This document shows positions 1-11,149 of a DNA stretch of 11,149 nucleotides, piece after piece. Source of the DNA: a virus (lineage: Duplodnaviria > Heunggongvirae > Uroviricota > Caudoviricetes); the IMG/VR virus record IMGVR_UViG_2923302340_000010, positions 1-11,149 of that record. One strand, written 5' to 3'. Under the pieces are notes generated by a model. The model had not been told where the DNA came from and made no database searches. It was given only the letters and a program-made list of their open reading frames with translations. A program made the translations under genes and the position numbers. How positions within the stretch are numbered: the stretch's first letter is position 1; each line of letters starts with the position of its first letter.

Positions 1-285
1 TCACACTCCAACGCGAAGACAACGAACTTTCCTGAATGCCTTACCATTGGGCTGATGTAATCCCATTCCGGCATGTGCCCGGCTGATGGTTTCGCGCATC
101 TCCCCGAAATTATCCTGCTTTGCTGGTGGGCGTGCTGCCTTGTGGATACATTCCGCGCGACGTTTTGCCGCCTGTTCCCGTGCCTTGTCATCATTCGCCA
201 GCATGATGACCTCAGCCCACCGCGCCGCCGCTCTCCGGTACAGACCACGCGCTTCCAGTGCTTCCGCTTTGCTGTCGTGAATCAT
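1..285 (-). CDS. PerC-family transcriptional regulator-like small protein (94 aa)
   Basis: Complete ORF: ATG at 285..283, TGA at 3..1. The motif EARGLYRRAAARW matches my recollection of prophage PerC/Pch-type regulators. The ATG overlaps the stop of the upstream ProQ-like gene (ATGA), suggesting translational coupling. Confidence 0.5.
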   Translation of the reverse strand: MIHDSKAEALEARGLYRRAAARWAEVIMLANDDKAREQAAKRRAECIHKAARPPAKQDNFGEMRETISRAHAGMGLHQPNGKAFRKVRCLRVGV

Positions 286-812
286 GCGCCTGTTTTCTCC
301 TTTGCTGCCCGGCGCTGACGTTTGCGCTTCTCATTCAGCGCCATCAGCCGCGTTTCTGCGTCCTGTTGTTCCTGTGGTGTCACCTCGCCGCACGGCTGGC
401 CTTTCAGGTCGTAACGCGCCCCACCAGCAACCAGGGCGCGGTAATAGCGCGGAGACTGCGCATAAGATGCCAGCGTCGCACGTAATGCCCCTGGCCCAAA
501 TGCCAGCCCCCTGACGGCGAGATCCTGCATCAGGTCGTCGAATATCCCCACCTTAAGCGGCTTCGGTGCTTCCCGGCTGAATAAGTCAGGCCACAACTCA
601 GTGAGGCGGTTAACGCGCCTGCGGTTTTTGCGCTGGCGTTTGGTCATATGCCGCCACGGTGTCGCCCCTGTGGGCTTCTGCTGCGCGTTCTGATTACCGG
701 GCATCACTTTATATGCCGATGTGGTTTTATCCTGCTGTTGCGTCTCCTGTACCATTTTTGTGGCATACCGTAATTTCTGTTGATGGTCAGCTTTTCCATG
801 TGTACTTTTCAT
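282..812 (-). CDS. ProQ/FinO-domain RNA-binding protein (176 aa)
   Basis: The segment PLKVGIFDDLMQDLAVRG...GALRATLASYAQSPRYYRALVAGGARYDLKGQPCGEV resembles the ProQ N-terminal/FinO domain, with a basic K/R-rich C-terminus. ATG at 812 has no obvious SD; internal Met codons are possible alternative starts. Confidence 0.7.
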   Translation of the reverse strand: MKSTHGKADHQQKLRYATKMVQETQQQDKTTSAYKVMPGNQNAQQKPTGATPWRHMTKRQRKNRRRVNRLTELWPDLFSREAPKPLKVGIFDDLMQDLAVRGLAFGPGALRATLASYAQSPRYYRALVAGGARYDLKGQPCGEVTPQEQQDAETRLMALNEKRKRQRRAAKEKTGA

Positions 813-891
813 CGATATTATCCGTATTATCGTCGTTCCTTTTGATGGCTTATTTCTATAGAAATTTCTTTATTGCTTATTACCCAGATAA

Positions 892-1218
892 TTAACTGAC
901 TATTAGTGCTTTAATACTCAGGTACGCAGAAAGAATAACACCAATAAAAGAAGGGTACAGCAGAATCCCAAACAAAAACTTCATGTACTTATGTTTTCCT
1001 ATCACTTCGTTAATAACAGATATTATACTCAACATACATAATGCAATACTTATAGTTGCAATAAATGCAATAGTAAGCAAGATGAAATATCTTACACCTG
1101 TTTGAGAAGATAAATTTGCAATTATACCTATCATAACGAGACTCTGTATAATCCCGAAAGACAAAGCACCAGAAGACTTTTCCACTATTTCACTAAATTT
1201 CTTCACAAAGTAAATCAT
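892..1218 (-). CDS. Small hydrophobic membrane protein, hypothetical (about 108 aa, predicted multi-pass)
   Basis: Strongly AT-rich ORF. ATG at 1218..1216 is preceded by AAGGTGA at 5-nt spacing (the track start at 1227 is GTG). The protein is dominated by I/L/F/V stretches consistent with about three transmembrane helices. TAA at 892..894. Confidence 0.55.
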   Translation of the reverse strand: MIYFVKKFSEIVEKSSGALSFGIIQSLVMIGIIANLSSQTGVRYFILLTIAFIATISIALCMLSIISVINEVIGKHKYMKFLFGILLYPSFIGVILSAYLSIKALIVS

Positions 1219-1295
1219 ATATATCACCTTTATATAACGCTATGCTAAGGTTTATTTATACGATATCCCCAAATGGTATTCCATCACCGTACGGA

Positions 1296-1514
1296 TCACT
1301 CTGCTGGCCTTTTTTGCCGCCCGGCCGCACCGTTCGCGCACTGATTACGCTGTCTGCGATAACCAGACCAGCCACGTTTCGCCGTTCCGTCATCTGCCTG
1401 GCTGCGCGGAAGGGGAACTGCCATACTCGCCATTGCCATTGGTGTTCCCTTGCTGGTGGTTTTTGAGTGCAGATCAGCCACCTGCTGCCCGTAAGCGGAT
1501 ATTTGTACCGTCAT
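1296..1514 (-). CDS. Hypothetical small protein (72 aa)
   Basis: ATG at 1514, TGA at 1296..1298; the ATG overlaps the stop region of the upstream 66-aa ORF (ATGA at 1511..1514). No recognisable motif; a plus-strand ORF overlaps it. Confidence 0.35.
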   Translation of the reverse strand: MTVQISAYGQQVADLHSKTTSKGTPMAMASMAVPLPRSQADDGTAKRGWSGYRRQRNQCANGAAGRQKRPAE

Positions 1515-1711
1515 GCTGTTTGCTCTCCGGTTTTAACGTTGATGATTGTCACCTGTTCAGCTTCGGCAATCTCCCGTTCTGTCAGCGTGGCAAAGTTTGC
1601 CGCTGCCGTTGTCATGAATGCGCTTATCAGTTCGGGATGTACTTTCGCGTATCCTTCCCCGGCGTTGCGGTCGATAATTTTTATCGCCCCCCTCAGCCTG
1701 TGTTCTGTCAA
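1511..1711 (-). CDS. Hypothetical small protein (66 aa; start uncertain)
   Basis: The track ORF begins with TTG at 1711 and has no clear SD; an internal ATG at 1615 is an alternative. The sequence looks protein-like (AIKIIDRNAGEGYAKVHPELISAF) and lies just downstream of the iteron cluster. Confidence 0.3.
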   Translation of the reverse strand: MTEHRLRGAIKIIDRNAGEGYAKVHPELISAFMTTAAANFATLTEREIAEAEQVTIINVKTGEQTA

Positions 1712-1799
1712 ATCAAGGGCGTGAGATTGTGTTTTTTGTGTGTTTCGTTGTCACAGCCTTTACCTCACAGCAATAAAATAAAATTTTTGCATTTTAACC

Positions 1800-2030
1800 C
1801 TTCACCTGTTCACCTTTTTCCGTTTCTCCTTTTAATTCATTGTGTTAAGGGGTGAACAGTTTCACAAAAACTATTCACCAACTGTTCACCACTGTTCACC
1901 CTTAAAGCTCAACAAATAATCAAAAAGGTGAACAGTGAATAGTTTGATGAACAGTTCATGAATAACTGTTCACCCTATAACCAACTGATATAGAACACAT
2001 TTATTACAGGGTGAACAGTGATGAACAGTT
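1800..2030. repeat. Iteron cluster of TGTTCACC/GGTGAACA octamers (P4 ori/crr-type replication origin region)
   Basis: Direct copies of TGTTCACC at 1807, 1883, 1893 and 1967; inverted copies GGTGAACA at 1851, 1927 and 2010; degenerate copies (ATTCACC, ATGAACAG) at 1873, 1947 and 2021. AT-rich context, starting immediately after the stop of the primase C-terminal ORF. Confidence 0.75.
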
Positions 2031-2041
2031 ATTCCATAAGT

Positions 2042-2386
2042 TTAATTTTTGCCATCGTCATTTGTGACCGATGCACATGAGGGCATCCAGTCTTCTGAAT
2101 CCTCTGTCAGTATCACGTTTGAACGCAAGCCATGCTTCGTTTTCCGTTTCATATACTCCCTGCCGTATTCCGCCATTGCCCCTGGCATATCCTTACCGAA
2201 GCGTGTCAGTGTTACGGGCTTACCGAATCCGTGTGCCCTCATATACGCCAGATAGGCGTGATAGAGATACCTGCGCGGGCTGAACGGAATAATTTCAGCA
2301 TTACCCACTAACAGGCCATCGCACATTACCGACGACATGAGATAGCCGCAGAAGTCCACCAGCGAATCGCCCTCGCGTTTTATCAC
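2042..2386 (-). CDS. C-terminal fragment of the P4 alpha-like primase/helicase (putative origin-binding domain), split from the upstream ORF by an in-frame TAG
   Basis: Same reading frame as 2438..3841. The 17 codons between the TAG at 2438..2440 and the GTG at 2386 are open (read-through gives ...LLTRFSD*DEAKRLLYEQQKSEEALVIKREGDS...). The pattern YLYHAYLAYMRAHGFGKPVTLTRFGKDM resembles the conserved C-terminal region of P4-family primases. Weak RBS before the GTG. Confidence 0.6.
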   Translation of the reverse strand: MIKREGDSLVDFCGYLMSSVMCDGLLVGNAEIIPFSPRRYLYHAYLAYMRAHGFGKPVTLTRFGKDMPGAMAEYGREYMKRKTKHGLRSNVILTEDSEDWMPSCASVTNDDGKN

Positions 2387-2437
2387 CAGGGCTTCTTCTG
2401 ATTTCTGCTGCTCATATAGCAGGCGTTTAGCTTCGTC

Positions 2438-3841
2438 CTAGTCAGAAAAGCGTGTAAGCAGGTGGCGAATCACTACCGCCAGCTCTCCTTCTATTTTTTC
2501 AGCCAGCATAGGGTCACGTTCGTTCTCCGGTACAACTTCCGAAAAATTGAATATTACCCGACGACGTGATATCCCACCGCTGCGGTCACTGAATGACATG
2601 GCGTTATTGTTCACCGCCAGCACGACCGCCTGAATGCGTGTTGAGTAGGGGGCTTTATGTTTCGGGTCGATTGCCACCTTATCACCGCCTGTAATGGCCT
2701 TAATCCCTGCACCATCACCAGCGTAACGGGTCATATCCGGCATGATAATCAGCGAAAAGCCAACCACTAACGCACGTTCCCTGGCATCTTCCAGCGCCTT
2801 CATGCTTGCCGATACCGTGTTGGCCTTACCCGCCAGCATAGTGCAAATCTCCGCCATTACGCTTTTACCGCTTCCACCCGGCCCCGTTACCTCAAGAAAT
2901 AACTGCCAGTCGTACCGATTCGCCAGCACCATGAATAACGCCGCCAGTACGCGATCTGCCTTGCGGTCATTCTCAGCCACCGAACGGCGCAACCACTTCC
3001 AGAAATTCGGCGCATGTGTTGCCAGCGTTTCCCCCTCTGCTGGTGGGCTGAAAGGTAATTCACTGGCAATTAACAACCAGTCGTTTTTGTTATGCTCCCG
3101 AAAATTACCAGTTCTGGTATCAAATACCCCGTTACTGAATCCAATCAGGTTACGGGCTGTATTCCCCATTACGGGCAAACTTAACTTCATGGTATCGACC
3201 GCCGATTTGATGGCGTTCTGCGAATAGCTGATTTCCGCATCAATAAAAATCTGCGCCATAGTCCGCTGTAACTCTTTATCCTGTACCGGCTCCCATACAA
3301 CACCGTTGTAGTGGTGAACGGTGTCAGAATCCGCATTGATTGCCAGTTCACCGCCATAATGTGCCAGGAGAACTTCGCCGCGCTGGCTGGCTCCCATCTG
3401 ATTTAGTGCTGGCCTGGGTAGGTCAATATTTTTTGTGGCTAATTTCATCGCTGAAACTTCCCCACTCTCTGCCTGTTCGCGGATCCGTTGCAGGTAGTCG
3501 CGCCAGTTTTCCGGCTCCCGGTCGGTGATACCTTTGTATAATTTCGCGTCCTGTACGCCAGCCAGTGCCAGTTTTTCAGCGATAGCATTGATCTGGATTG
3601 GTTCGATCTCCCCCGCGAGATAGACACGCGCAAAGCGGCGTTCATCGTCGACAATGCGGATATTCGCCAGGTCTGCCAGTTGCTTTGGCCCCAGGTAAAC
3701 AGGTGGTACGTTATCGCCGTGTTTTCGTCCTTCGCTTTCAATCCAGTGTTGAGCATGGGCGTAAGCATCCGTCCCGGCAAAAATGATTACCTCAGTGAAT
3801 TTATCCTTCGGCTGATATTTCAAACTCGGTGCGTTTTTCAC
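2438..3841 (-). CDS. P4 alpha-like primase/helicase (D5/P4-family P-loop NTPase), truncated by an in-frame TAG at 2438..2440
   Basis: 467-aa ORF with Walker A motif GPGGSGKS. GTG start at 3841 is preceded by GGGAGGT and overlaps the stop of the upstream gene (GTGA). Together with 2042..2386 it would make a roughly 600-aa protein. Confidence 0.85.
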   Translation of the reverse strand: MKNAPSLKYQPKDKFTEVIIFAGTDAYAHAQHWIESEGRKHGDNVPPVYLGPKQLADLANIRIVDDERRFARVYLAGEIEPIQINAIAEKLALAGVQDAKLYKGITDREPENWRDYLQRIREQAESGEVSAMKLATKNIDLPRPALNQMGASQRGEVLLAHYGGELAINADSDTVHHYNGVVWEPVQDKELQRTMAQIFIDAEISYSQNAIKSAVDTMKLSLPVMGNTARNLIGFSNGVFDTRTGNFREHNKNDWLLIASELPFSPPAEGETLATHAPNFWKWLRRSVAENDRKADRVLAALFMVLANRYDWQLFLEVTGPGGSGKSVMAEICTMLAGKANTVSASMKALEDARERALVVGFSLIIMPDMTRYAGDGAGIKAITGGDKVAIDPKHKAPYSTRIQAVVLAVNNNAMSFSDRSGGISRRRVIFNFSEVVPENERDPMLAEKIEGELAVVIRHLLTRFSD

Positions 3842-4128
3842 TTCTTACCTCCCGCAACCAACATTGCCCGGATTTTTTTAATATTCGTGGCTGCACGTCT
3901 TGCCACTGCCTGTTGTTTGTTTTCAACCAGAATAAAATCACGCTCAAACTGACGGCGCGGCATTACGCAGTCATATTCGTAAGCCTCACGGCGGTAGGTG
4001 ATATTGCCTGGCGTAACGTGACGAATAACCACTCGTCCCCCACGTCTGGTGTCGCGGTAAATATCGCCGTGTCTGATTTCAGGCCGAGCGGGGCCGCTGG
4101 CAGTAAAGCCAGAATTTTTCTTTTTCAT
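3838..4128 (-). CDS. Hypothetical basic protein (96 aa), coupled to the primase start
   Basis: ATG at 4128, TGA at 3838..3840 overlapping the primase GTG. Arg/Lys-rich; no motif recognised. Confidence 0.55.
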   Translation of the reverse strand: MKKKNSGFTASGPARPEIRHGDIYRDTRRGGRVVIRHVTPGNITYRREAYEYDCVMPRRQFERDFILVENKQQAVARRAATNIKKIRAMLVAGGKK

Positions 4129-4132
4129 GGTT

Positions 4133-4333
4133 TTATTTTCCTGTCAGCAGTTCCGGTTTTATTTCCGCACGAATACAAAGTTCAGAAAAAAATTCAGGAG
4201 AACCAACAATCTCATTACTTTTCAGTCGGCATTGTGATTTCACTTTCCCTTTATCCAGGTAAACCAGTACGCGTCCGGTGAAATCATCTGGCACACTCAG
4301 GGTAATTGTCATTGTTGCTTGCTGATTATCCAT
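4133..4333 (-). CDS. Hypothetical protein (66 aa)
   Basis: ATG at 4333 preceded by a GGGGGTGA SD; overlaps the stop of the upstream gene by 8 nt; TAA at 4133..4135. Confidence 0.5.
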   Translation of the reverse strand: MDNQQATMTITLSVPDDFTGRVLVYLDKGKVKSQCRLKSNEIVGSPEFFSELCIRAEIKPELLTGK

Positions 4334-4691
4334 GATTCACCCCCTGAATAACCTGATAACCGCAACTGGTCAGCAATTCGATAAATTCCGGCAGTGTGCC
4401 GAAACAGCAATCATCACGCATACGTTCGCGGGATACCTCAACGCCGTTTTCGTAGTGACTCACCATGCGTCCAGTAAAATGCAGATCATCATCGTGATGG
4501 CACGTTGACGGCTTAATCAGTCGCGCACGTTCTGCCAGTTCCAGCAATGCTTCAACGCTTCCGGCAATTGCACCATCCGGCAGGTGATAATTACTTACCA
4601 CGCGTCCATTCTCCACGTTGACCAGTAGCTGCCCGGAAAATATCTCGTCAAACTGAATGCTGTTAAGGTCAGAAATTGACAGGTTATGCAT
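4326..4691 (-). CDS. Hypothetical protein (121 aa)
   Basis: ATG at 4691 preceded by CAGGAGGTG at ideal spacing (the track's longer start at 4709 is less likely); 8-nt overlap (ATGCATAA) with the upstream gene's stop. Confidence 0.55.
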   Translation of the reverse strand: MHNLSISDLNSIQFDEIFSGQLLVNVENGRVVSNYHLPDGAIAGSVEALLELAERARLIKPSTCHHDDDLHFTGRMVSHYENGVEVSRERMRDDCCFGTLPEFIELLTSCGYQVIQGVNHG

Positions 4692-4908
4692 GGTGCACCT
4701 CCTGCACATCAGCCATGATAATTTTTCCGGCCTTATCCAGTGCCTGATCGGCTTTTAGCTGCACAAATGCTAAATAATGGGAGATGCATTCTGATTCTCT
4801 GGCTGCGTGTTTATGCGCCACACCAGCGATAGCAGAAATCTCAATAAGTGAATCCATCAGCGTTTTGATAGCGTCTACCGCTGCATCAGGCCATGTTGCA
4901 TTACACAT
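4684..4908 (-). CDS. Hypothetical protein (74 aa)
   Basis: ATG at 4908 preceded by CAGGAGGTGG; overlaps the stop of the upstream gene (ATGTGTAA). Confidence 0.5.
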   Translation of the reverse strand: MCNATWPDAAVDAIKTLMDSLIEISAIAGVAHKHAARESECISHYLAFVQLKADQALDKAGKIIMADVQEVHHA

Positions 4909-5266
4909 GTTCCACCTCCTGGCGAATGCGGGCAGCGAATACCATCACGCAGCCATCAGGAGATTGCTGGCGTGCTTCCTGTTCGCTGGTGGCCTCGATG
5001 TGAATTACACGCGGTTGTGCTGTGCTCAGGGCGATAAAACGCCATATAAAATTGTTTTCGCATTTCTGAATAAACAGCGTGTTTTCTTCGCGCCCTTTCC
5101 ATGTTGCCGAGATATAGCCCATATCATTGAGCATCTTGCAGGCATCCACCAGCGTATCAGCGGCTACGTGTACAGTGTTTTTACCGTCAGCCATGCAATC
5201 ACGGTGCACCGCCAGGAAGGTGTATATAAATTTAGGGTGAGTTTGGGTATGCTGTATTCCAGCCAT
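4901..5266 (-). CDS. Hypothetical protein (121 aa), first gene of the operon leading into the primase
   Basis: Internal ATG at 5266..5264 of the 384-aa track ORF, preceded by GAGGT at about 8 nt. Upstream of it the frame yields low-complexity Ser/Cys-rich sequence and overlaps the plus-strand regulator gene, so the long ORF is an artefact. Confidence 0.55.
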   Translation of the reverse strand: MAGIQHTQTHPKFIYTFLAVHRDCMADGKNTVHVAADTLVDACKMLNDMGYISATWKGREENTLFIQKCENNFIWRFIALSTAQPRVIHIEATSEQEARQQSPDGCVMVFAARIRQEVEHV

Positions 5267-5353
5267 AATCGTTACCTCATTTAACGGTTTGGTTAGAAGC
5301 CCGGTTAGTGTTCGCGCACTGCCGGGTTTCGTCGTTTTTATGAATCGCTCATT

Positions 5354-5455
5354 GTGAGATACATAGCGACCTCCATGTGAGATACACATTATATTGTGGT
5401 GATATACATTGCAAGTGTTTTTATATCTCACTTTTGTGTATAGTGATATACACAT
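5354..5455. promoter_or_regulatory. Phased operator-like repeat array GTGA(G/T)ATACA(CA)T in the divergent intergenic region
   Basis: Direct copies at 5354..5364, 5377..5389, 5399..5409 and 5443..5455, plus an inverted copy ATATCTCAC at 5423..5431, spaced about 22-23 bp apart (two helical turns). A possible extended -10 (TGTGTATAGT, about 5435..5444) faces the plus-strand gene. Confidence 0.5.
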
Positions 5456-5474
5456 AACAAATTGGTGATTAACT

Positions 5475-5777
5475 ATGTCTGTATACAAAAATGCAAAATC
5501 GCAAATGACAACGATCAGGGTTCCCCACGATGTTATGGAGGGCATGGAATCCGTAAAACTGGACGGCGAAAGCAACGCCGGATTCATAGTAACCGCCATG
5601 CGCGGTGAGATCGCTCGCCGCCAGGCAGAAGGAAGAGGAGAAAATCCCCTGGTTTCTTCGCTCGATGCACTGGCGCAGGTGGAAAAAATCGGTGTCAAAG
5701 CTGCCGAGGAGATCGGGCAACTCGTCACCGTCGCGCGTGAAGAACTCCAGCGCCGCAAGGCCAAAGAACAGGAGTAG
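5475..5777 (+). CDS. Small DNA-binding regulator, putative ribbon-helix-helix (CopG/Arc-like) repressor (100 aa)
   Basis: ATG at 5475 with GGTGA 6 nt upstream; TAG at 5775..5777. TTIRVPHDV (beta-strand), then a helix, a NAG turn and a second helix (FIVTAMRGEIARR) fit the RHH pattern; charged helical C-terminus. It is the only convincing plus-strand gene in the element and is divergent from the small-gene operon. Confidence 0.5.
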   Translation: MSVYKNAKSQMTTIRVPHDVMEGMESVKLDGESNAGFIVTAMRGEIARRQAEGRGENPLVSSLDALAQVEKIGVKAAEEIGQLVTVAREELQRRKAKEQE

Positions 5778-6047
5778 TTGATCAGCACCGGGCGACCAGA
5801 AAAAATCGCATCAGTCGCACCACCAGCAAAATTTTTTGCTTTCCGGACAGCGTGACCAACGACATTTTGCAGCAAAATATTCTGCATTTCTGGCGTGCTG
5901 TAGTAACGGTGATCAGCGCCTTCACTCTGTGCGACCACAACGCTATAATCTGCCTCGTAGACAGTAAGCAATATGGCGCAGTAGGCTATTCGTTCACAAA
6001 GGCGCTCCGGCAACGGGGCGCTTTCTCTTTTTGTAACGGTCAGAGCG

Positions 6048-6896
6048 TTACACATGGCTGTTTTCCTCCATGCGGCGGGCTAACCAACGCTGCGAAAGAC
6101 GAATTAATTCAGCTTTCCGCTGGTGGTAGTCCTGGCCTAACTCAATCAGCGTGATATTGCTCTGCTCAAGGTAAGAAAGGTGCTCAAGCTGCAACGTGCT
6201 CATGTGGTCGCGTGGTTCGCCTGTGATGCCGTTCGCCAGTGCCCACTGTTTTGCAGTCATGCCACCCAGCACGATACGCGCCAGCATATTGGCTTCCGTG
6301 GTGTAGTGGTGCTGGAACGTGCTTTTACCCAGTTCAGCCCGGTACGCCTCCAGCGCGGCGCACATCGGCTTAAAGTAGCTGGCAACGGTGATACGGGCTT
6401 TCAGTTCCCGGCGTAACGCTGCGGAACGCACTGGCGCCACCTTGTGTAGATCCTCCTCGCATTTGATGAAATACTGGCGAACGGCGCGGCCTTGTTCGGT
6501 GCGTTCGACCATCGCCAGTTCTTTCGCCATGTTCGTGGAGATCAAATAGTCTTCACTGCGGCGATCACCGCCGCGCTTTGTTGTCCAATCAGAATCAAAC
6601 TGTTCAATATTTACACTTTGGTTCCCCCGTTTCGGGGAATCAAAGTACAAATTTTCTACAACTTCAAAATCCACGCCATTTTTAAATCCGTACTCATCAA
6701 TACGTCCTTTAATCCAGGTAGTGAAATCACGGCCTACCCCGAGCGCCTTATACAACGCTCTGGCGCTAACAATATTGGTTTCACGCCCGCCAATAACGCC
6801 GGAAATAACCGGGATAATTTCGCCAAAATTTTGCAGATTCTGGTTTTCAGGCCGAACGAAGCCCTGCCCCTGTACGGGCGTTTTTGGAAATTTCAT
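6048..6896 (-). CDS. Phage antirepressor-like protein with N-terminal AntA/Bro-N-type domain (282 aa)
   Basis: ATG at 6896 preceded by AGGAG; TAA at 6048..6050. ALYKALGVGRDFTTWIKGRIDEYGF and NMAKELAMVERTEQGRAVRQYFIKCEE match the conserved blocks of phage Ant/Bro-N antirepressor N-domains as I recall them. Confidence 0.7.
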   Translation of the reverse strand: MKFPKTPVQGQGFVRPENQNLQNFGEIIPVISGVIGGRETNIVSARALYKALGVGRDFTTWIKGRIDEYGFKNGVDFEVVENLYFDSPKRGNQSVNIEQFDSDWTTKRGGDRRSEDYLISTNMAKELAMVERTEQGRAVRQYFIKCEEDLHKVAPVRSAALRRELKARITVASYFKPMCAALEAYRAELGKSTFQHHYTTEANMLARIVLGGMTAKQWALANGITGEPRDHMSTLQLEHLSYLEQSNITLIELGQDYHQRKAELIRLSQRWLARRMEENSHV

Positions 6897-6973
6897 AAAA
6901 ACTCCTGCTATCGAATTAAGTTACTTTTATTTGCTGGTGGATAGCTGGGGGCAATAGCCCCGTAGCCATTTAA

Positions 6974-7171
6974 TCAGGTAGCTGTTCCGCGTGATTCTGC
7001 AATACGCTGATTAATCCACTCGTCAATTTCACTCTCAACGAAAGCAATCGCTCGCGAGCCAATTTTAACTGATGCAGGAAATTTACCTTGCCCCATAAGG
7101 CGATAAATCCATGCCTTGCTATATCCAGTTCTACGCTGAACTTCTGTTAAACGAATAAGCGTATTTGACAT
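6974..7171 (-). CDS. alpA: AlpA-family phage regulatory protein (MerR-like HTH; excisionase/transcriptional activator type, 65 aa)
   Basis: LTEVQRRTGYSKAWIYRLMGQGKFP...ESEIDEWINQR matches the AlpA/Vis family pattern (HTH followed by EIDEW). ATG at 7171 preceded by GAGGT; TGA at 6974..6976. Confidence 0.85.
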   Translation of the reverse strand: MSNTLIRLTEVQRRTGYSKAWIYRLMGQGKFPASVKIGSRAIAFVESEIDEWINQRIAESRGTAT

Positions 7172-7240
7172 ATATTTACCTCATAACGTCTACTCAATTT
7201 GACGAGGTAATCATGGCACAGAAATAACGAATATTTTCAT

Positions 7241-7385
7241 ACCCTCAGGCCTAATGGTTACCGGAAGGAAATTAACCCTAAGGGTGATGGTAATCGGGAG
7301 GAAATCTACCCTAAGGGTGATGGTAAAATTGACGGGGAAGATAAAAAAATACCCTCAGGGTAACAGTAAATCACCCTCAGGGTAT
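7241..7385. promoter_or_regulatory. Array of palindromic ACCCT(A/C)AGGGT sites upstream of alpA, including a 31-bp tandem duplication
   Basis: Sites at 7275..7285, 7308..7318, 7351..7361 and 7373..7383, with a half-site at 7241..7249. Nearly identical 31-bp units at 7263..7293 and 7296..7326 (GGA(A/G)GGAAAT(T/C)(A/T)ACCCTAAGGGTGATGGTAA). TACCCTcAGGGTA at 7350..7362 is a perfect 13-bp palindrome. Confidence 0.5.
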
Positions 7386-7398
7386 GCGGTATGGTGCG

Positions 7399-8196
7399 TT
7401 AATCCGGCTTTGCGTTCTTTTGGCTGTTGTCTCGGTTAATAGGGCAGGCAGTCCTCTCTATGAGCGTTGCAAGAGCATTACTTGCCCCCCACTGCTTAAG
7501 CTCCCTGGTTATCGCTTCTTGATTTCCCCTGGTGGCAAAATCATTTTCTGGATCGTAATTGGCCCACTCTCTGTTTCTAATCTCAATAGCCTTAGCTAAT
7601 GGGTCTTTATCCCAGTATTTATATAAGTGTATCGGGCGCTCTTGCTCTAACTGCTCTATCCTTGCCCTTAACTCTGCGTTTTCTTTTTCCAGCATTGCGA
7701 TTTGGGATAATAAATCATCCTCTGTACGCAACTCTTTCTTTTCAATATCGCGTCCTTGTGCCTCGTCATTTTCAGAAGAGTTAGCGCCTTCCAGCTTCGT
7801 TAACGCGTCAAGGACATCGGGAAAAATTGCGAAAATTTCACCCCTTATAAATCCAATGTTCTCAAATTCGGGATCTTCCCAATAACCGGACACCAGAAAA
7901 CCATTTTCATCCCTCTCACCAGGTAAACAACCACGTTTCCGAACCGCATTCAGATTTCTATAAAGAACATCATAATCAAATTCATCCCGATACGGGTTAC
8001 AAAAAGATTCCAACAGCTTAAATTCATTTACTGTGTACAGGCGGATATGTTCTCCGTTTATTCTCCTGAGTATCCAAGTTATGACATCTGAAACATCATA
8101 ATCATCACCAGCGACCTTAAGCACGACCTCAAGAAATTCACGTAAAGAAATAAAATCTTTTTTGTATTCGTTTAATTCGGCATGAATATCAATCAT
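7399..8196 (-). CDS. Hypothetical acidic protein (about 265 aa) with central coiled-coil; AT-rich orphan gene between int and alpA
   Basis: ATG at 8196 preceded by GAGGTG (the track start at 8202 is GTG); TAA at 7399..7401. Markedly lower GC than its neighbours. Coiled-coil-like segment LLSQIAMLEKENAELRARIEQLEQE. No catalytic motif recognised. Confidence 0.7.
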   Translation of the reverse strand: MIDIHAELNEYKKDFISLREFLEVVLKVAGDDYDVSDVITWILRRINGEHIRLYTVNEFKLLESFCNPYRDEFDYDVLYRNLNAVRKRGCLPGERDENGFLVSGYWEDPEFENIGFIRGEIFAIFPDVLDALTKLEGANSSENDEAQGRDIEKKELRTEDDLLSQIAMLEKENAELRARIEQLEQERPIHLYKYWDKDPLAKAIEIRNREWANYDPENDFATRGNQEAITRELKQWGASNALATLIERTACPINRDNSQKNAKPD

Positions 8197-8324
8197 ACGC
8201 ACACCTCAGCGTCCTCTACTGTAGTGGCTGTACCAGTCCGTCGAGGTGTACGGATTTTCGGGAGCGACCCTAGACACAGCCTTTTCTTTCGTCGCTCAAA
8301 GTCTACTACTGTATACTCAACCAG

Positions 8325-9539
8325 TCACCCGCATTTTCCGAACTCACCATGCACCACATTTCCGCCATGCTCGAGCGAATCCATATAGTCGGCATACCAC
8401 TGGAGCATCTCCCGGCGACCATCCAGATATTGCGCATGGTTGTATGTGCCACGAATTGAGTTTTTATCGACGTGTGCAAGCTGTGTCTCTATCCACGCGG
8501 TGTTATAGCCCTGCTCATGCAAAATGGTGCTCATGGTGTGCCGGAATCCATGACCAGTAACCTTTCCGTTATAGCCGATGCGTTTAAATACTTGGTTTAT
8601 GCTAGCCTCGCTCATTGTTTTCCTTGGATCATTACGGCCGGGAAACATAAGCGGATAATTGCCAGTTAATTCTTTAATCTGCCCAATAAGCGAAAGAGCC
8701 TGCTTAGACAAAGGCACCACATGAGGGCGACGCATTTTCATCCGTGAAGCAGGTATCTCCCAGATAGCCTTGTTGAGATCGATTTCATCCCATAATGCAC
8801 CGCGCAGTTCGCCAGTCCGCAAACCGGTGATAATCAGTAGACGAGCCGCCATAACAACCAATGCACTTCCTGAGTAACTGGACAATGCCTTGAAAAAATC
8901 AGGTAATTCTTTGGCTGTGAGGAAAGGATAATGATTAGATTCATGACCTTGCATCGCGCTGGTGAGATCCGGTGCAGGGTTATACTCAGCACGTCCAGTG
9001 ACAATTGCATAGCGGAAAACCTCCCCGCATCGCTGCCTCACTTTTTTGGCTTTTTCGGTAGCACCGCGCCCCTCGATGCGCCGCAGCACATTCAGCAGTT
9101 CAAGTGGTTTGATTTCGGCGATTGGTTTTTTGCCAATGTAAGGGAACACATCTTTGTTGAAGGCTTCGAGGATGTCTGAAGCATAACCAGCAGACCATTT
9201 TTTTAATTTGCTGCTGTGCCACTCAAGGGCAATATCTTTGAAGGTGTTGTTTAACTGCGTTTCCCGGGCAATCTTTTCCTCTCGTTTCGCTTCCATCGGA
9301 TCGATACCCCCAGCGATACCCCTTTTAGCTTCTTCACGTTTTGCACGAGCATCAGCCAAGGTAACTTCAGGATACACACCTAGTGCTAACAGCTTCTCTT
9401 TACCAGCTACACGATACTTGAAGCGCCAATATTTTCCTCCACTAGGTTTTACCAAGAGATACAGACCGCCACCATCAGCCAGCTTGTAAGCCTTCTCTTT
9501 TGGCTTGGCAGTGTCTATTTGACGGGCATTGAGTTTCAC
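8325..9539 (-). CDS. int: P4-type tyrosine site-specific integrase (404 aa)
   Basis: N-terminal arm-binding-type region (LNARQIDTAKPKEK...GGLYLLVKPSGGKYWRFKYR), catalytic R in GLRTGELRG, H-x-x-R in HGFRHT, and a C-terminal Tyr in RGTYNH. GTG start at 9539 preceded by GGAGGT. Lies directly beside the tRNA 3' end. Confidence 0.95.
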   Translation of the reverse strand: MKLNARQIDTAKPKEKAYKLADGGGLYLLVKPSGGKYWRFKYRVAGKEKLLALGVYPEVTLADARAKREEAKRGIAGGIDPMEAKREEKIARETQLNNTFKDIALEWHSSKLKKWSAGYASDILEAFNKDVFPYIGKKPIAEIKPLELLNVLRRIEGRGATEKAKKVRQRCGEVFRYAIVTGRAEYNPAPDLTSAMQGHESNHYPFLTAKELPDFFKALSSYSGSALVVMAARLLIITGLRTGELRGALWDEIDLNKAIWEIPASRMKMRRPHVVPLSKQALSLIGQIKELTGNYPLMFPGRNDPRKTMSEASINQVFKRIGYNGKVTGHGFRHTMSTILHEQGYNTAWIETQLAHVDKNSIRGTYNHAQYLDGRREMLQWYADYMDSLEHGGNVVHGEFGKCG

Positions 9540-9614
9540 TTGGGGGTACCTCCACTAAACCGAACAGCAAATACCCCCAAAAGTACCCCCAATTGACTGT
9601 AGATTTTGGGGTAC
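9540..9614. promoter_or_regulatory. GTACCCCCAA repeat set between int and the tRNA (candidate Int arm-binding sites / int promoter-operator within attL)
   Basis: Inverted copy at 9540..9549 (abutting the int start codon), direct copies at 9572..9580 and 9583..9592, inverted copy at 9606..9614. Confidence 0.45.
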
Positions 9615-9705
9615 TTAAGTAGACGTCAAAAGACTAAAAGGGGCATTAATATACTGATTATAAGAGGTTTTTAAATACTTTAGTAGACTTGGGGAGACGT
9701 TAGAA

Positions 9706-9781
9706 TGGTGCCGATAATAGGAGTCGAACCTACGACCTTCGCATTACGAATGCGCTGCTCTACCAACTGAGCTATATCGGC
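9706..9781 (-). tRNA. thrW: tRNA-Thr (anticodon CGU)
   Basis: The reverse complement reads GCCGATATAGCTCAGTTGGTAGAGCAGCGCATTCGTAATGCGAAGGTCGTAGGTTCGACTCCTATTATCGGCACCA: 76 nt, cloverleaf-compatible, anticodon loop TTCGTAA, encoded CCA. Position downstream of proA matches the E. coli proA-thrW arrangement. Confidence 0.95.
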
Positions 9782-9826
9782 CCTGAAAGGACATGTTCAC
9801 GAACGTGAATCACGGTGGACAAGGTT

Positions 9827-9889
9827 AAAACTAACCGGGCGATGCGTCAATGGCCTTGTGAATCAAATGGCTACTTTTGCATCACCCGG
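9827..9889 (-). terminator. Possible proA transcription terminator (long-loop hairpin followed by a U-rich tract)
   Basis: Inverted repeat 9835..9845 / 9879..9889 (11 bp, one G-U position), followed on the minus strand by UUAGUUUU. The loop is long, so this is weakly supported. Confidence 0.3.
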
Positions 9890-9895
9890 TTTTAT

Positions 9896-11149
9896 TTACG
9901 CACGAATGGTGTAATCACCAATGCCGATCCACTTGTAAGTGGTCAGCGCTTCCAGCCCCATTGGGCCACGCGCGTGGAGTTTTTGTGTGCTTACCGCCAC
10001 TTCCGCGCCCAGTCCAAACTGGCCGCCGTCGGTAAAACGCGTAGAGGCGTTAACGTAAACAGAGGACGAATCCACTTCGTTAACAAAACGCTGGGCGTTG
10101 CGCATATCGCGGGTCAGGATCGCATCGGAGTGTTGTGTGCCGTGTTCACGAATATGGGCGATGGCATCGTCAAGATCGCTGACGATTTTAACGTTCAAAT
10201 CTAATGACAGAAACTCATCGTCATACTCTTCGGCTTTAACAGCCACCACCTTCGCGGGGCCTGCCTGCAACTGCGCCAGCGCAGCTACATCTGCGTGTAA
10301 TGTCACGCTGCTTTCCGCCATTTGCTTGCTTAATGCGGGCAGGAAGCTATCGGCGATGTTTTTATTTACCAGCAACGTTTCTACCGTATTACATGTGCTC
10401 GGACGCTGAGTTTTTGCGTTAACGATTACTTTCATGGCTTCAGCGATCTCTGCACTTTCATCAACGTAAATATGGCATACGCCTATACCGCCTGTGATCA
10501 CCGGGATTGTCGACTGTTCGCGGCACAGCTTATGCAGGCCAGCGCCACCACGCGGGATCAGCATGTCGATGTATTTATCCATACGCAGCATTTCACTTAC
10601 CAGCGCACGGTCAGGATTATCAATCGCCTGCACGGCACCCGCCGGTAAGCTGCAGGATTTCAGGGCGTCCTGAATCACCGCCACCGTTGCAGCGTTAGTG
10701 CGACAGGTTTCTTTGCCACCACGCAGGATCACTGCGTTACCGGTTTTCAGGCACAGGGAAGCAACATCAACCGTCACGTTCGGGCGCGCTTCATAAATCA
10801 CGCCAATCACCCCCAGCGGTACGCGACGACGCTCCAGACGCAGACCGCTGTCCAGTACGCCACCATCAATCACCTGCCCCACCGGATCGGCGAGGTTACA
10901 CACCTGACGCACATCATCGGCAATGCCTTTCAGCCGTGCGGGCGTCAGAGCCAGACGGTCAAGCATCGCTTCGCTAAGGCCATTGGCACGCGCGTCAGCA
11001 ACATCCTGCGCGTTAGCGTTGAGGATGATTTTGCTTTGTGCTTCCAGTTCATCGGCGATTTTTTCCAGCACGCGATTTTTTTCGCGGCTGGAGAGTTGCG
11101 CTAATTTATACGAGGCTTGCTTCGCGGCAATGCCCATTTGTTCCAGCAT
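9896..11149 (-). CDS. proA: Gamma-glutamyl phosphate reductase (glutamate-5-semialdehyde dehydrogenase)
   Basis: Full 417-aa ORF: ATG at the window end ([19 protein letters not shown]...), TAA at 9896..9898; aldehyde-dehydrogenase-like throughout; lies beside the tRNA-Thr gene as in enterobacterial chromosomes. Confidence 0.97.

Follow-up and report, generated by a model that had tools for sequence, protein, structure and literature searches.

A probable replication origin with phage P4-type iterons beside the rep gene in a phage-inducible chromosomal island

Results

An octamer array borders the rep gene

This work concerns a stretch of 11,149 nucleotides from a virus of the Caudoviricetes (IMG/VR record IMGVR_UViG_2923302340_000010, positions 1 to 11,149), the whole of which is called the window below, and a cluster of repeated octamers within it that borders rep, a minus-strand gene for an initiator protein (Rep) resembling the alpha protein of phage P4. 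Our analyses suggested that the cluster serves a phage-inducible chromosomal island (PICI) as its replication origin. The octamer TGTTCACC occurs exactly at 1807, 1883, 1893 and 1967 on the plus strand and at 1851, 1927 and 2010 on the minus strand, that is, in seven exact copies within 211 bp. Three sites with one mismatch accompany them, TATTCACC at 1872 (plus strand) and TGTTCATC at 1946 and 2020 (minus strand), and the resulting 10 sites between 1807 and 2027 (221 bp) agree with the original prediction, which had counted about ten octamers in both orientations within 230 bp. Two more degenerate octamers were recognized by comparison with relatives, CCTTCACC at 1799-1806 (plus strand) and TATTCACT at 1934-1941 (minus strand), and the complete array thus comprises 12 octamers (six plus six) in both orientations from 1799 to 2027. 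The array region is AT-rich (GC 0.25-0.40, with 0.5-0.6 in the flanking coding regions), and its edge at 2027 lies 14 bp from the stop of rep (end of the open reading frame, ORF, at 2042-2044).

Outside the array, the whole window holds a single exact TGTTCACC, at 2608. Chance expectation was taken from 200 dinucleotide-preserving shuffles of the whole window, which gave a mean of 0.38 exact copies per window and not one shuffle with eight or more. The lone copy at 2608-2615 (plus strand) lies within the coding sequence of rep, at a distance of ~580 bp from the array, and is found at the same position in the close relatives L002, L003 and L004, which may simply reflect conservation of the gene.

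The octamers are arranged in two inverted modules (Table 1). On the plus strand, the left module runs from a pair (1799/1807) through a 36-bp spacer and an inverted iteron (1851) to a triplet (1872/1883/1893) whose spacing of 11 and 10 bp is about one helical turn, and the right module repeats this order on the reverse strand (pair 2020/2010, 35-bp spacer, inverted iteron 1967, triplet 1946/1934/1927). The two triplets face a 26-bp central spacer, and the octamers of a pair or triplet mostly stand 10-11 bp apart. An AT tract like that at 1770-1798 is kept across genera, and a similar tract occupies the same place in P4 ori and crr.

Other signals were sparse. No DnaA box with at most one mismatch and no IHF consensus was found in the origin region, nothing terminator-like was detected between rep and the array or the next gene, and an Rfam scan of the window gave nothing in the origin, only the tRNA and an int-alpA RNA motif. 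A long plus-strand ORF (1433-1855) that overlaps the array was dismissed, being antisense to conserved minus-strand genes. These scans bear on the proposal that the array is mainly a transcriptional operator through which Rep regulates the downstream ssb, proQ and perC genes or blocks read-through. Plasmid iterons often double as operators, and the array stands between rep and the next genes without a terminator-like site and near two weak promoter-like matches at 1726-1779. However, these matches are at chance level (two, against 1.0 expected) and both lie outside the array, and the array is built like P4 ori and like a PICI origin whose activity has been demonstrated by experiment (PMC6092414). 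Regulation might accompany origin function but would not take its place; as the main role, it seems very improbable.

The octamer is the type I iteron of phage P4

The P4 record X51522 annotates an "ori type 1 repeat" both in crr (4291-4590) and in ori (9310-9413), with a rep_origin feature at 9086-9809, and crr lies just downstream of the alpha gene (4636-6969, minus strand). Read from the sequence, the type 1 repeats are TGTTCACC and its one-mismatch variants. The octamer had been predicted to be the type I iteron of P4 ori and crr, a claim that a different sequence of the P4 iteron would have undone; in X51522 the identical octamer is annotated. Beside crr, P4 also carries a perfect DnaA-box sequence, TTATCCACA (~4282-4290 of our P4 locus, L001).

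Alignment with P4 ori and crr, proposed with the original prediction as a check, was performed five ways, with both halves of the array, P4 ori and both crr repeats. Both modules run colinearly with the P4 ori core once the latter (9425-9300) is reverse-complemented, with identities of 65 and 59%. Over the first ~85 columns of the alignment, this colinearity extends to each of the 120-bp crr repeats. An AT-rich spacer of 35-36 bp is present in all five sequences, and the left spacer of the window resembles the crr spacer in sequence. Binding of the type I repeats by the alpha protein is established knowledge, reportedly from work of Ziegelin et al. (1993, EMBO J), and we take it here together with the GenBank annotation. 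The array is homologous to P4 ori and crr and would work like them. Literature searches added little: in full text, the octamer turned up only as noise from primer sequences, a search on P4 crr and iterons returned only papers mentioning the domain organization of alpha, and one on P4 crr and ori yielded nothing.

In view of the resemblance to crr, the cluster might instead correspond to crr, acting in cis as an auxiliary or enhancer site while the true origin lies elsewhere in the island. The position immediately 3' of the alpha homologue is crr-like, as is the distal spacer, but in the pattern of their orientations the iterons agree with P4 ori and not with crr. Moreover, a second iteron cluster was found neither in the window nor in the 16-19 kb loci of relatives, including the entire 16.5-kb record vB_KppS-Ant, whereas P4 and a true P4-like prophage showed two clusters each in the same comparison. 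The cis elements of P4, ori and crr, are ~4.5 kb apart (5 kb by X51522 coordinates), and the window has one cluster. In addition, rep and the putative ori site of EcCICFT073 are sufficient for replication (PMC6092414), and we assign very little probability to a crr equivalent with an origin elsewhere.

rep encodes a P4-alpha-like initiator interrupted by a stop codon

The minus-strand ORFs 2438-3841 and 2042-2386 are one reading frame split by an in-frame TAG, which separates a helicase part of 467 amino acids from the C-terminal DNA-binding part. The upstream part (D5_N, DUF5906) is 52% identical to residues 327-648 of P4 alpha. The downstream part matches PDB entry 1KA8, the origin-binding winged helix of P4 alpha (E = 6.6e-25), and the assignment of ORF 2042-2386 as the C-terminal domain was thus confirmed by homology to the P4 origin-binding domain (49% identity). 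Rep also carries the TIGR01613 domain. Its N-terminus has a predicted alpha/beta fold that is weakly Toprim-like, from which the catalytic Glu and the Zn finger are absent. The original prediction placed the octamers directly after the primase gene; the position is right (rep ends at 2042-2044 and the nearest iteron at 2027), but the gene is broken by the TAG at 2438-2440 and the P4 primase domain is absent.

Relatives encode an uninterrupted Rep of 599-604 amino acids with CAG (Gln) at the position of the TAG. The 81 bp around the TAG had no exact match in 5,426 complete E. coli genomes, and none of them carries the TAG, which is a private nonsense mutation or, possibly, a sequencing error. 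With the helicase cut off from the DNA-binding domain by this codon, the copy is probably unable to fire its own origin and would need a cognate Rep, or alpha, in trans. Over 330 bp, the origin itself shows 100% identity with its counterpart in strain H41/A41, which has an intact rep, and should therefore respond to cognate Rep in trans. The lack of an intact cognate Rep in cis concerns the functional state of this copy and not the identity of the origin, and the nonsense codon suggests either a decaying island or one relying on Rep in trans.

Alternatively, the TAG could result from a sequencing error, or suppression or read-through could overcome it; full-length Rep would then be made, and the origin would be fully autonomous in this host. 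The TAG differs by a single C-to-T change from the CAG of relatives that are otherwise 99.5-99.7% identical, and the iterons are 100% identical to those of H41/A41. On the other hand, the base stands in the sequence as given, and ssb and proQ are also decaying in close relatives, making pseudogenization plausible; we regard this account as unlikely, if worth bearing in mind.

Arrays are conserved across Enterobacterales, and their octamer class follows the predicted wing of Rep

The family scan used one genome per species, for which 80 loci were fetched, and 85 Enterobacterales rep loci were available overall. The 80 loci came from Klebsiella, Raoultella, Kluyvera, Pluralibacter, Citrobacter, Enterobacter, Pectobacterium, Pantoea, Serratia, Yersinia, Rahnella, Erwinia, Xenorhabdus, Photorhabdus and other genera, and an octamer repeated in the 330 bp 3' of rep was seen in every one of them (80/80, L009-L088). 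Four octamer classes were distinguished across Enterobacterales, TNTTCACC, TNTCTACC, TNTCCACC and TGTCCGCC. The palindromic layout is common to most of the 85 loci, with Rep of either ~600 or ~800 amino acids, the exception being the direct-repeat crr of P4. Among 14 origins of the TTCACC class from eight genera, conservation reached 82% in iteron columns and 58% in spacer columns (Mann-Whitney p = 3e-9). In addition, 686 of 5,426 complete E. coli genomes carry the array beside rep.

These data, together with the shuffles, led us to reject a chance cluster or a generic dispersed repeat unrelated to replication, such as a repetitive extragenic palindrome (REP) or a miniature inverted-repeat transposable element (MITE). 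The AT-rich intergenic setting is all that recommends such an origin of the repeats; the octamer count was reached in none of the 200 shuffles, and the same place beside rep is occupied in those E. coli genomes and in many genera, with iteron positions kept and spacers diverged. The probability left to it is negligible.

One column of the C-terminal-domain alignment sets the TTCACC class apart from all others. It falls within YMKRKTKHGLRSN (2117-2155), a predicted beta-hairpin after the third helix, taken from a low-confidence AlphaFold model (predicted local distance difference test, pLDDT, of 49) of which only the secondary structure was used. This is the position of the wing in winged-helix domains such as 1KA8 (PMC2777425). 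Across the 85 loci, the octamer class follows the wing hairpin and not overall relatedness. With the hairpin left aside, an E. ruysiae Rep, for example, shares 82% identity with the window domain, yet its hairpin is longer and different and its octamer is TGTCTACC; for P4 alpha the corresponding identity is only 49%, but the motif TKxG(h)(R/Q)(S/T)N is retained and the octamer is TGTTCACC. Furthermore, two distinct hairpin backbones that share "GN" both pair with TCCACC. The tracking of the wing hairpin by the iteron class therefore supports the domain encoded at 2042-2437 as the putative reader of the iterons.

The element is organized as a phage-inducible chromosomal island

The window carries thrW, int, alpA, an AntA-type gene, an icd-like gene, a DUF4222 gene, rep and ori, all on the minus strand, with the icd-like gene and several small ORFs between the AntA-type and DUF4222 genes (Table 1). 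Gram-negative PICIs are recognized by int, alpA, rep and ori in one direction, by a tRNA or specific attachment site, by a length of 10-15 kb, and by the absence of structural and lysis modules. Their organization includes perC as an accessory gene (Fillol-Salom et al., 2018; PMC6092414), and an element with three core genes only (int, regulator and pri-rep) is a "Type C" PICI-like element under the SatelliteFinder criteria (PMC10085698). The order of genes in the window matches EcCICFT073 gene for gene, and the nearest relative integrated at thrW, in APEC IMT5155, is an island of ~14 kb with the same content. Capsid-morphogenesis and/or small-terminase genes, which the SatelliteFinder criteria ask of a PICI alongside those three, were neither found among the window ORFs scanned (the island extends past position 1) nor annotated in the closest thrW relative; with no more than the three core genes, the element would be classed as Type C.

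The iterons had been taken to anchor the classification of the element, but they do not make it P4-like. The core set of P4-like satellites (int, psu, delta, sid, alpA, epsilon plus alpha, ordered as in P4; PMC8628076) is not present: psu, sid and delta (Psu, Sid, Ogr/Delta) had no match among the window ORFs or in the annotation of relatives, and a true P4-like locus fetched for comparison (L007) shows all three. When the whole window was compared with phage records by megablast, P4 was not among the matches, of which the capsid-forming satellite vB_KppS-Ant was the best; the relationship to P4 is visible only at the protein level and in short origin segments. The element had also been called a P4-type replicon, and this description holds in part. 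The iterons, the origin alignment and the C-terminal domain (49%) place it in the P4-alpha family, which is apparent in the type I iteron clusters and in an alpha-type helicase of superfamily 3 (SF3) with a C-terminal origin-binding winged helix (split by the stop); but there is one origin with inverted modules in place of the ori and crr pair, and the Zn-finger/Toprim primase domain, the direct 120-bp crr repeats and the type 2 repeats are wanting. The array thus lacks part of what marks a P4 replicon, the element lacks the P4-like gene set, and by membership the array is an EcCICFT073-type PICI origin. We classify the element as a PICI whose replicon belongs to the P4-alpha family, and not as a P4-like satellite.

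Several further features of the island and its relatives were recorded. The Rfam int-alpA RNA motif (RF02996) lies at 8213-8280 on the minus strand, just downstream of the integrase gene (45.5 bits, gathering score 35.8). A minus-strand ORF of 384 amino acids (4901-6055) matches an Icd-like cell-division inhibitor in its last ~50 residues only; relatives annotate a short icd-like gene and a nearby plus-strand YlcI/YnfO gene at this locus, and the long ORF is probably not real. SSB of relatives has 136-149 amino acids or is frameshifted or partial, and proQ is frameshifted in several close relatives. A related island in E. coli O111:H8 strain 8E (L003, ~4100-14350), ~88.6% identical over rep-ori, sits inside a prophage terminase large-subunit gene, the halves of which are annotated on either side, and carries its own ClpP-protease/major-capsid fusion gene.

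Table 1. Features of the window, with positions counted from its first nucleotide
Feature	Position	Strand	Remarks
PerC	1..285	-	
ProQ/FinO	282..812	-	
ORF without family match	892..1227	-	
ssb remnant, 72 amino acids	1296..1514	-	matches part of the SSB profile only
phrog_1231 gene, 66 amino acids	1511..1711	-	first gene downstream of the origin
AT-rich tract, GC ~25%	1770..1798	.	beside the distal pair; alternative candidate melting site
Origin core, 12 putative Rep-binding octamers	1799..2027	.	two inverted ~100-bp modules, 1799-1900 and 1927-2027
Rep-distal iteron pair	1799..1814	+	CCTTCACC 1799-1806 (2 mismatches) and TGTTCACC 1807-1814; aligns with P4 ori/crr pair
AT-rich spacer, 36 bp, GC 31%	1815..1850	.	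between distal pair and inverted iteron
Single inverted iteron	1851..1858	-	reads GGTGAACA on the plus strand
Iteron triplet	1872..1900	+	TATTCACC 1872, TGTTCACC 1883, TGTTCACC 1893; colinear with P4 ori triplet 9331/9320/9310
Central spacer, 26 bp, GC 23%	1901..1926	.	candidate melting site
Second triplet	1927..1953	-	TGTTCACC 1927-1934, degenerate TATTCACT 1934-1941, TGTTCATC 1946-1953
Single inverted iteron, rep-proximal module	1967..1974	+	
AT-rich spacer, 35 bp, GC 29%, rep-proximal module	1975..2009	.	
Rep-proximal iteron pair	2010..2027	-	TGTTCACC 2010-2017 and TGTTCATC 2020-2027, spacing 10 bp
rep, P4-alpha-like initiator, 599 codons, one in-frame stop	2042..3841	-	Toprim-like N-terminus, D5_N, SF3 helicase (DUF5906), C-terminal winged helix (Pox_D5)
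C-terminal origin-binding winged-helix region	2045..2437	-	49% identity to P4 alpha 652-771; 1KA8; Pox_D5
Predicted wing hairpin codons, YMKRKTKHGLRSN	2117..2155	-	sequence tracks iteron class
In-frame TAG (Q468* equivalent)	2438..2440	-	CAG in relatives
N-terminal 150 amino acids of Rep	3392..3841	-	sequence unrelated to P4 primase region
DUF4222 gene	3838..4128	-	
AntA-type gene	6048..6896	-	
alpA (Phage_AlpA/HTH_17), PICI activator gene	6974..7171	-	PMC6092414
ORF without family match	7399..8202	-	
Tyrosine integrase	8325..9539	-	
tRNA-Thr(CGU), thrW, integration site	9706..9781	-	
proA	9896..11149	-	

Discussion

Taken together, the array is very probably a PICI replication origin with P4-type iterons that is read by a P4-alpha-like Rep. 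For this locus we rely on sequence, statistics, homology, architecture and covariation, while the dependence of replication on Rep and ori is known from the EcCICFT073 homologue, and from these we infer binding, melting site, priming and activity here. Induction by a helper phage would switch on an alpA-dependent leftward operon that reads through the origin and expresses Rep. The C-terminal winged helices of Rep would then bind the 12 octamers, with the wing hairpin setting the octamer class that is recognized, and the ~10.5-bp spacing (10-11 bp) would put bound Rep on one face of the DNA. Hexamers of Rep, an SF3 helicase, may form on both inverted modules and open a neighboring AT-rich segment. 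As no credible primase domain is present in Rep, priming probably falls to host DnaG, and replication is probably bidirectional.

Several points weigh against this explanation. First, rep is cut by the TAG, so the origin may be inert in this copy. Second, the pLDDT of 49 makes the placement of the discriminating residues in the wing tentative. Third, the covariation of iteron and wing takes no account of phylogeny, even if the GN motif goes with the TCCACC class on two or more different wing backbones. Fourth, melting could take place in the central spacer, in the 35-bp spacers or in the flanking AT tract.

Because this PICI class and P4 share the octamer and the layout of the origin modules, cross-recognition between alpha and Rep is possible: the alpha protein of a co-resident P4-like satellite might fire the island origin, and the island Rep might act on P4 origins. 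We regard such cross-talk as a speculative and rather unlikely prospect. If it occurred, a rep-defective island could still be amplified in trans, and two satellite families described as independently evolved would be coupled at the level of the replicon by cross-activation or incompatibility. Specificity would then be set by a few wing residues, with TKxG... leading to TTCACC, KGN... to TCCACC, and KGR... to TCTACC/TCCGCC. That the octamer class follows the wing hairpin of the initiator across Enterobacterales is also modestly new and offers a testable specificity code, as is the nonsense mutation found here. The origin is placed within ~230 bp. The CFT073 "primase-ori" already serves as a conditional replicon, and orthogonal Rep/iteron classes could extend this toolkit.

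Comparison with known origins

P4 ori resembles the window origin in its identical type I octamer, in the order and orientation of pair, 35-bp AT spacer, inverted iteron and triplet at 10-11 bp spacing, and in a cognate protein that is homologous in both its helicase and winged-helix parts. The window origin, which directly follows rep, joins two modules head to head; P4 ori, by contrast, has one module only, which lies upstream of the alpha operon at ~2.3 kb from the alpha start and acts in concert with crr. It also has three tandem type 2 repeats, which the window lacks, its one 9/10 match being at chance level. P4 crr likewise lies directly 3' of the alpha gene, with the same octamer, a flanking A/T tract and a homologous pyrimidine-rich 35-bp spacer (TTTCTCCTTTTAATTCA-like), but it consists of two direct 120-bp repeats 60 bp apart with a different orientation pattern. 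In addition, crr is preceded by a terminator and flanked by a perfect DnaA box, whereas the window origin has neither and its modules are inverted.

Origins of Staphylococcus aureus pathogenicity islands (SaPIs) and other Gram-positive PICIs are alike by description, lying 3' of the initiator gene with two iteron sets flanking an AT-rich region; their sequences are unrelated, and Rep and Pri are different proteins (PMC6092414).

The closest parallel is found in EcCICFT073. Fillol-Salom et al. (2018, ISME J) identified the region immediately 3' of the initiator gene as the PICI origin and described E. coli PICI origins as two iteron sets flanking an AT-rich region (PMC6092414). A segment with rep and the putative ori of EcCICFT073 sustains a temperature-sensitive plasmid and needs both parts, deletion of either rep or ori abolishing or reducing plasmid replication (PMC6092414). 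Furthermore, the CFT073 primase supplied in trans maintains a cosmid with the CFT073 PICI origin, a conditional "primase-ori" replicon (Brodel et al., 2024, Nature; PMC11338833). In the window, the origin likewise stands immediately 3' of rep, as it does in CFT073 and 80 other loci, with two sets of six octamers around a 26-bp spacer of 23% GC. The two islands share the order int, alpA, icd-like, DUF4222, rep, ori, ssb, perC, and in both the origin begins ~15 bp after the rep stop and consists of two inverted modules around a central spacer; in CFT073, the 290 bp after rep read as pair, spacer, inverted iteron, triplet, central spacer and then the mirror image. With the intact ABU 83972 allele as the basis for comparison, Rep is 51% identical over its full length, but the C-terminal DNA-binding domains are just 36% identical, the wing hairpins differ, and the iteron is TGTCTACC/TATCTACC in EcCICFT073 and TGTTCACC in the window. 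The window also differs in the nonsense codon of its rep copy and in having no capsid gene within its bounds. Two observations concern ABU 83972 itself. Compared with window positions 1712-2044, its origin (L002, 8213-8546) has a 1-bp insertion between two iterons of one triplet, which changes the spacing from 10 to 11 bp. Its Rep closely resembles the CFT073 allele over the N-terminal ~140 amino acids and follows the window over the remainder, and rep alleles therefore look mosaic.

An origin of this kind has thus already been described and tested, and the window is one more instance, in which the iteron class coincides with that of P4. What goes beyond the published description is that one class of E. 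coli PICI origins uses the exact P4 type I iteron in two modules like P4 ori; given this shared iteron and module layout, the replication modules of PICIs and P4, elements otherwise treated as independent, share ancestry.

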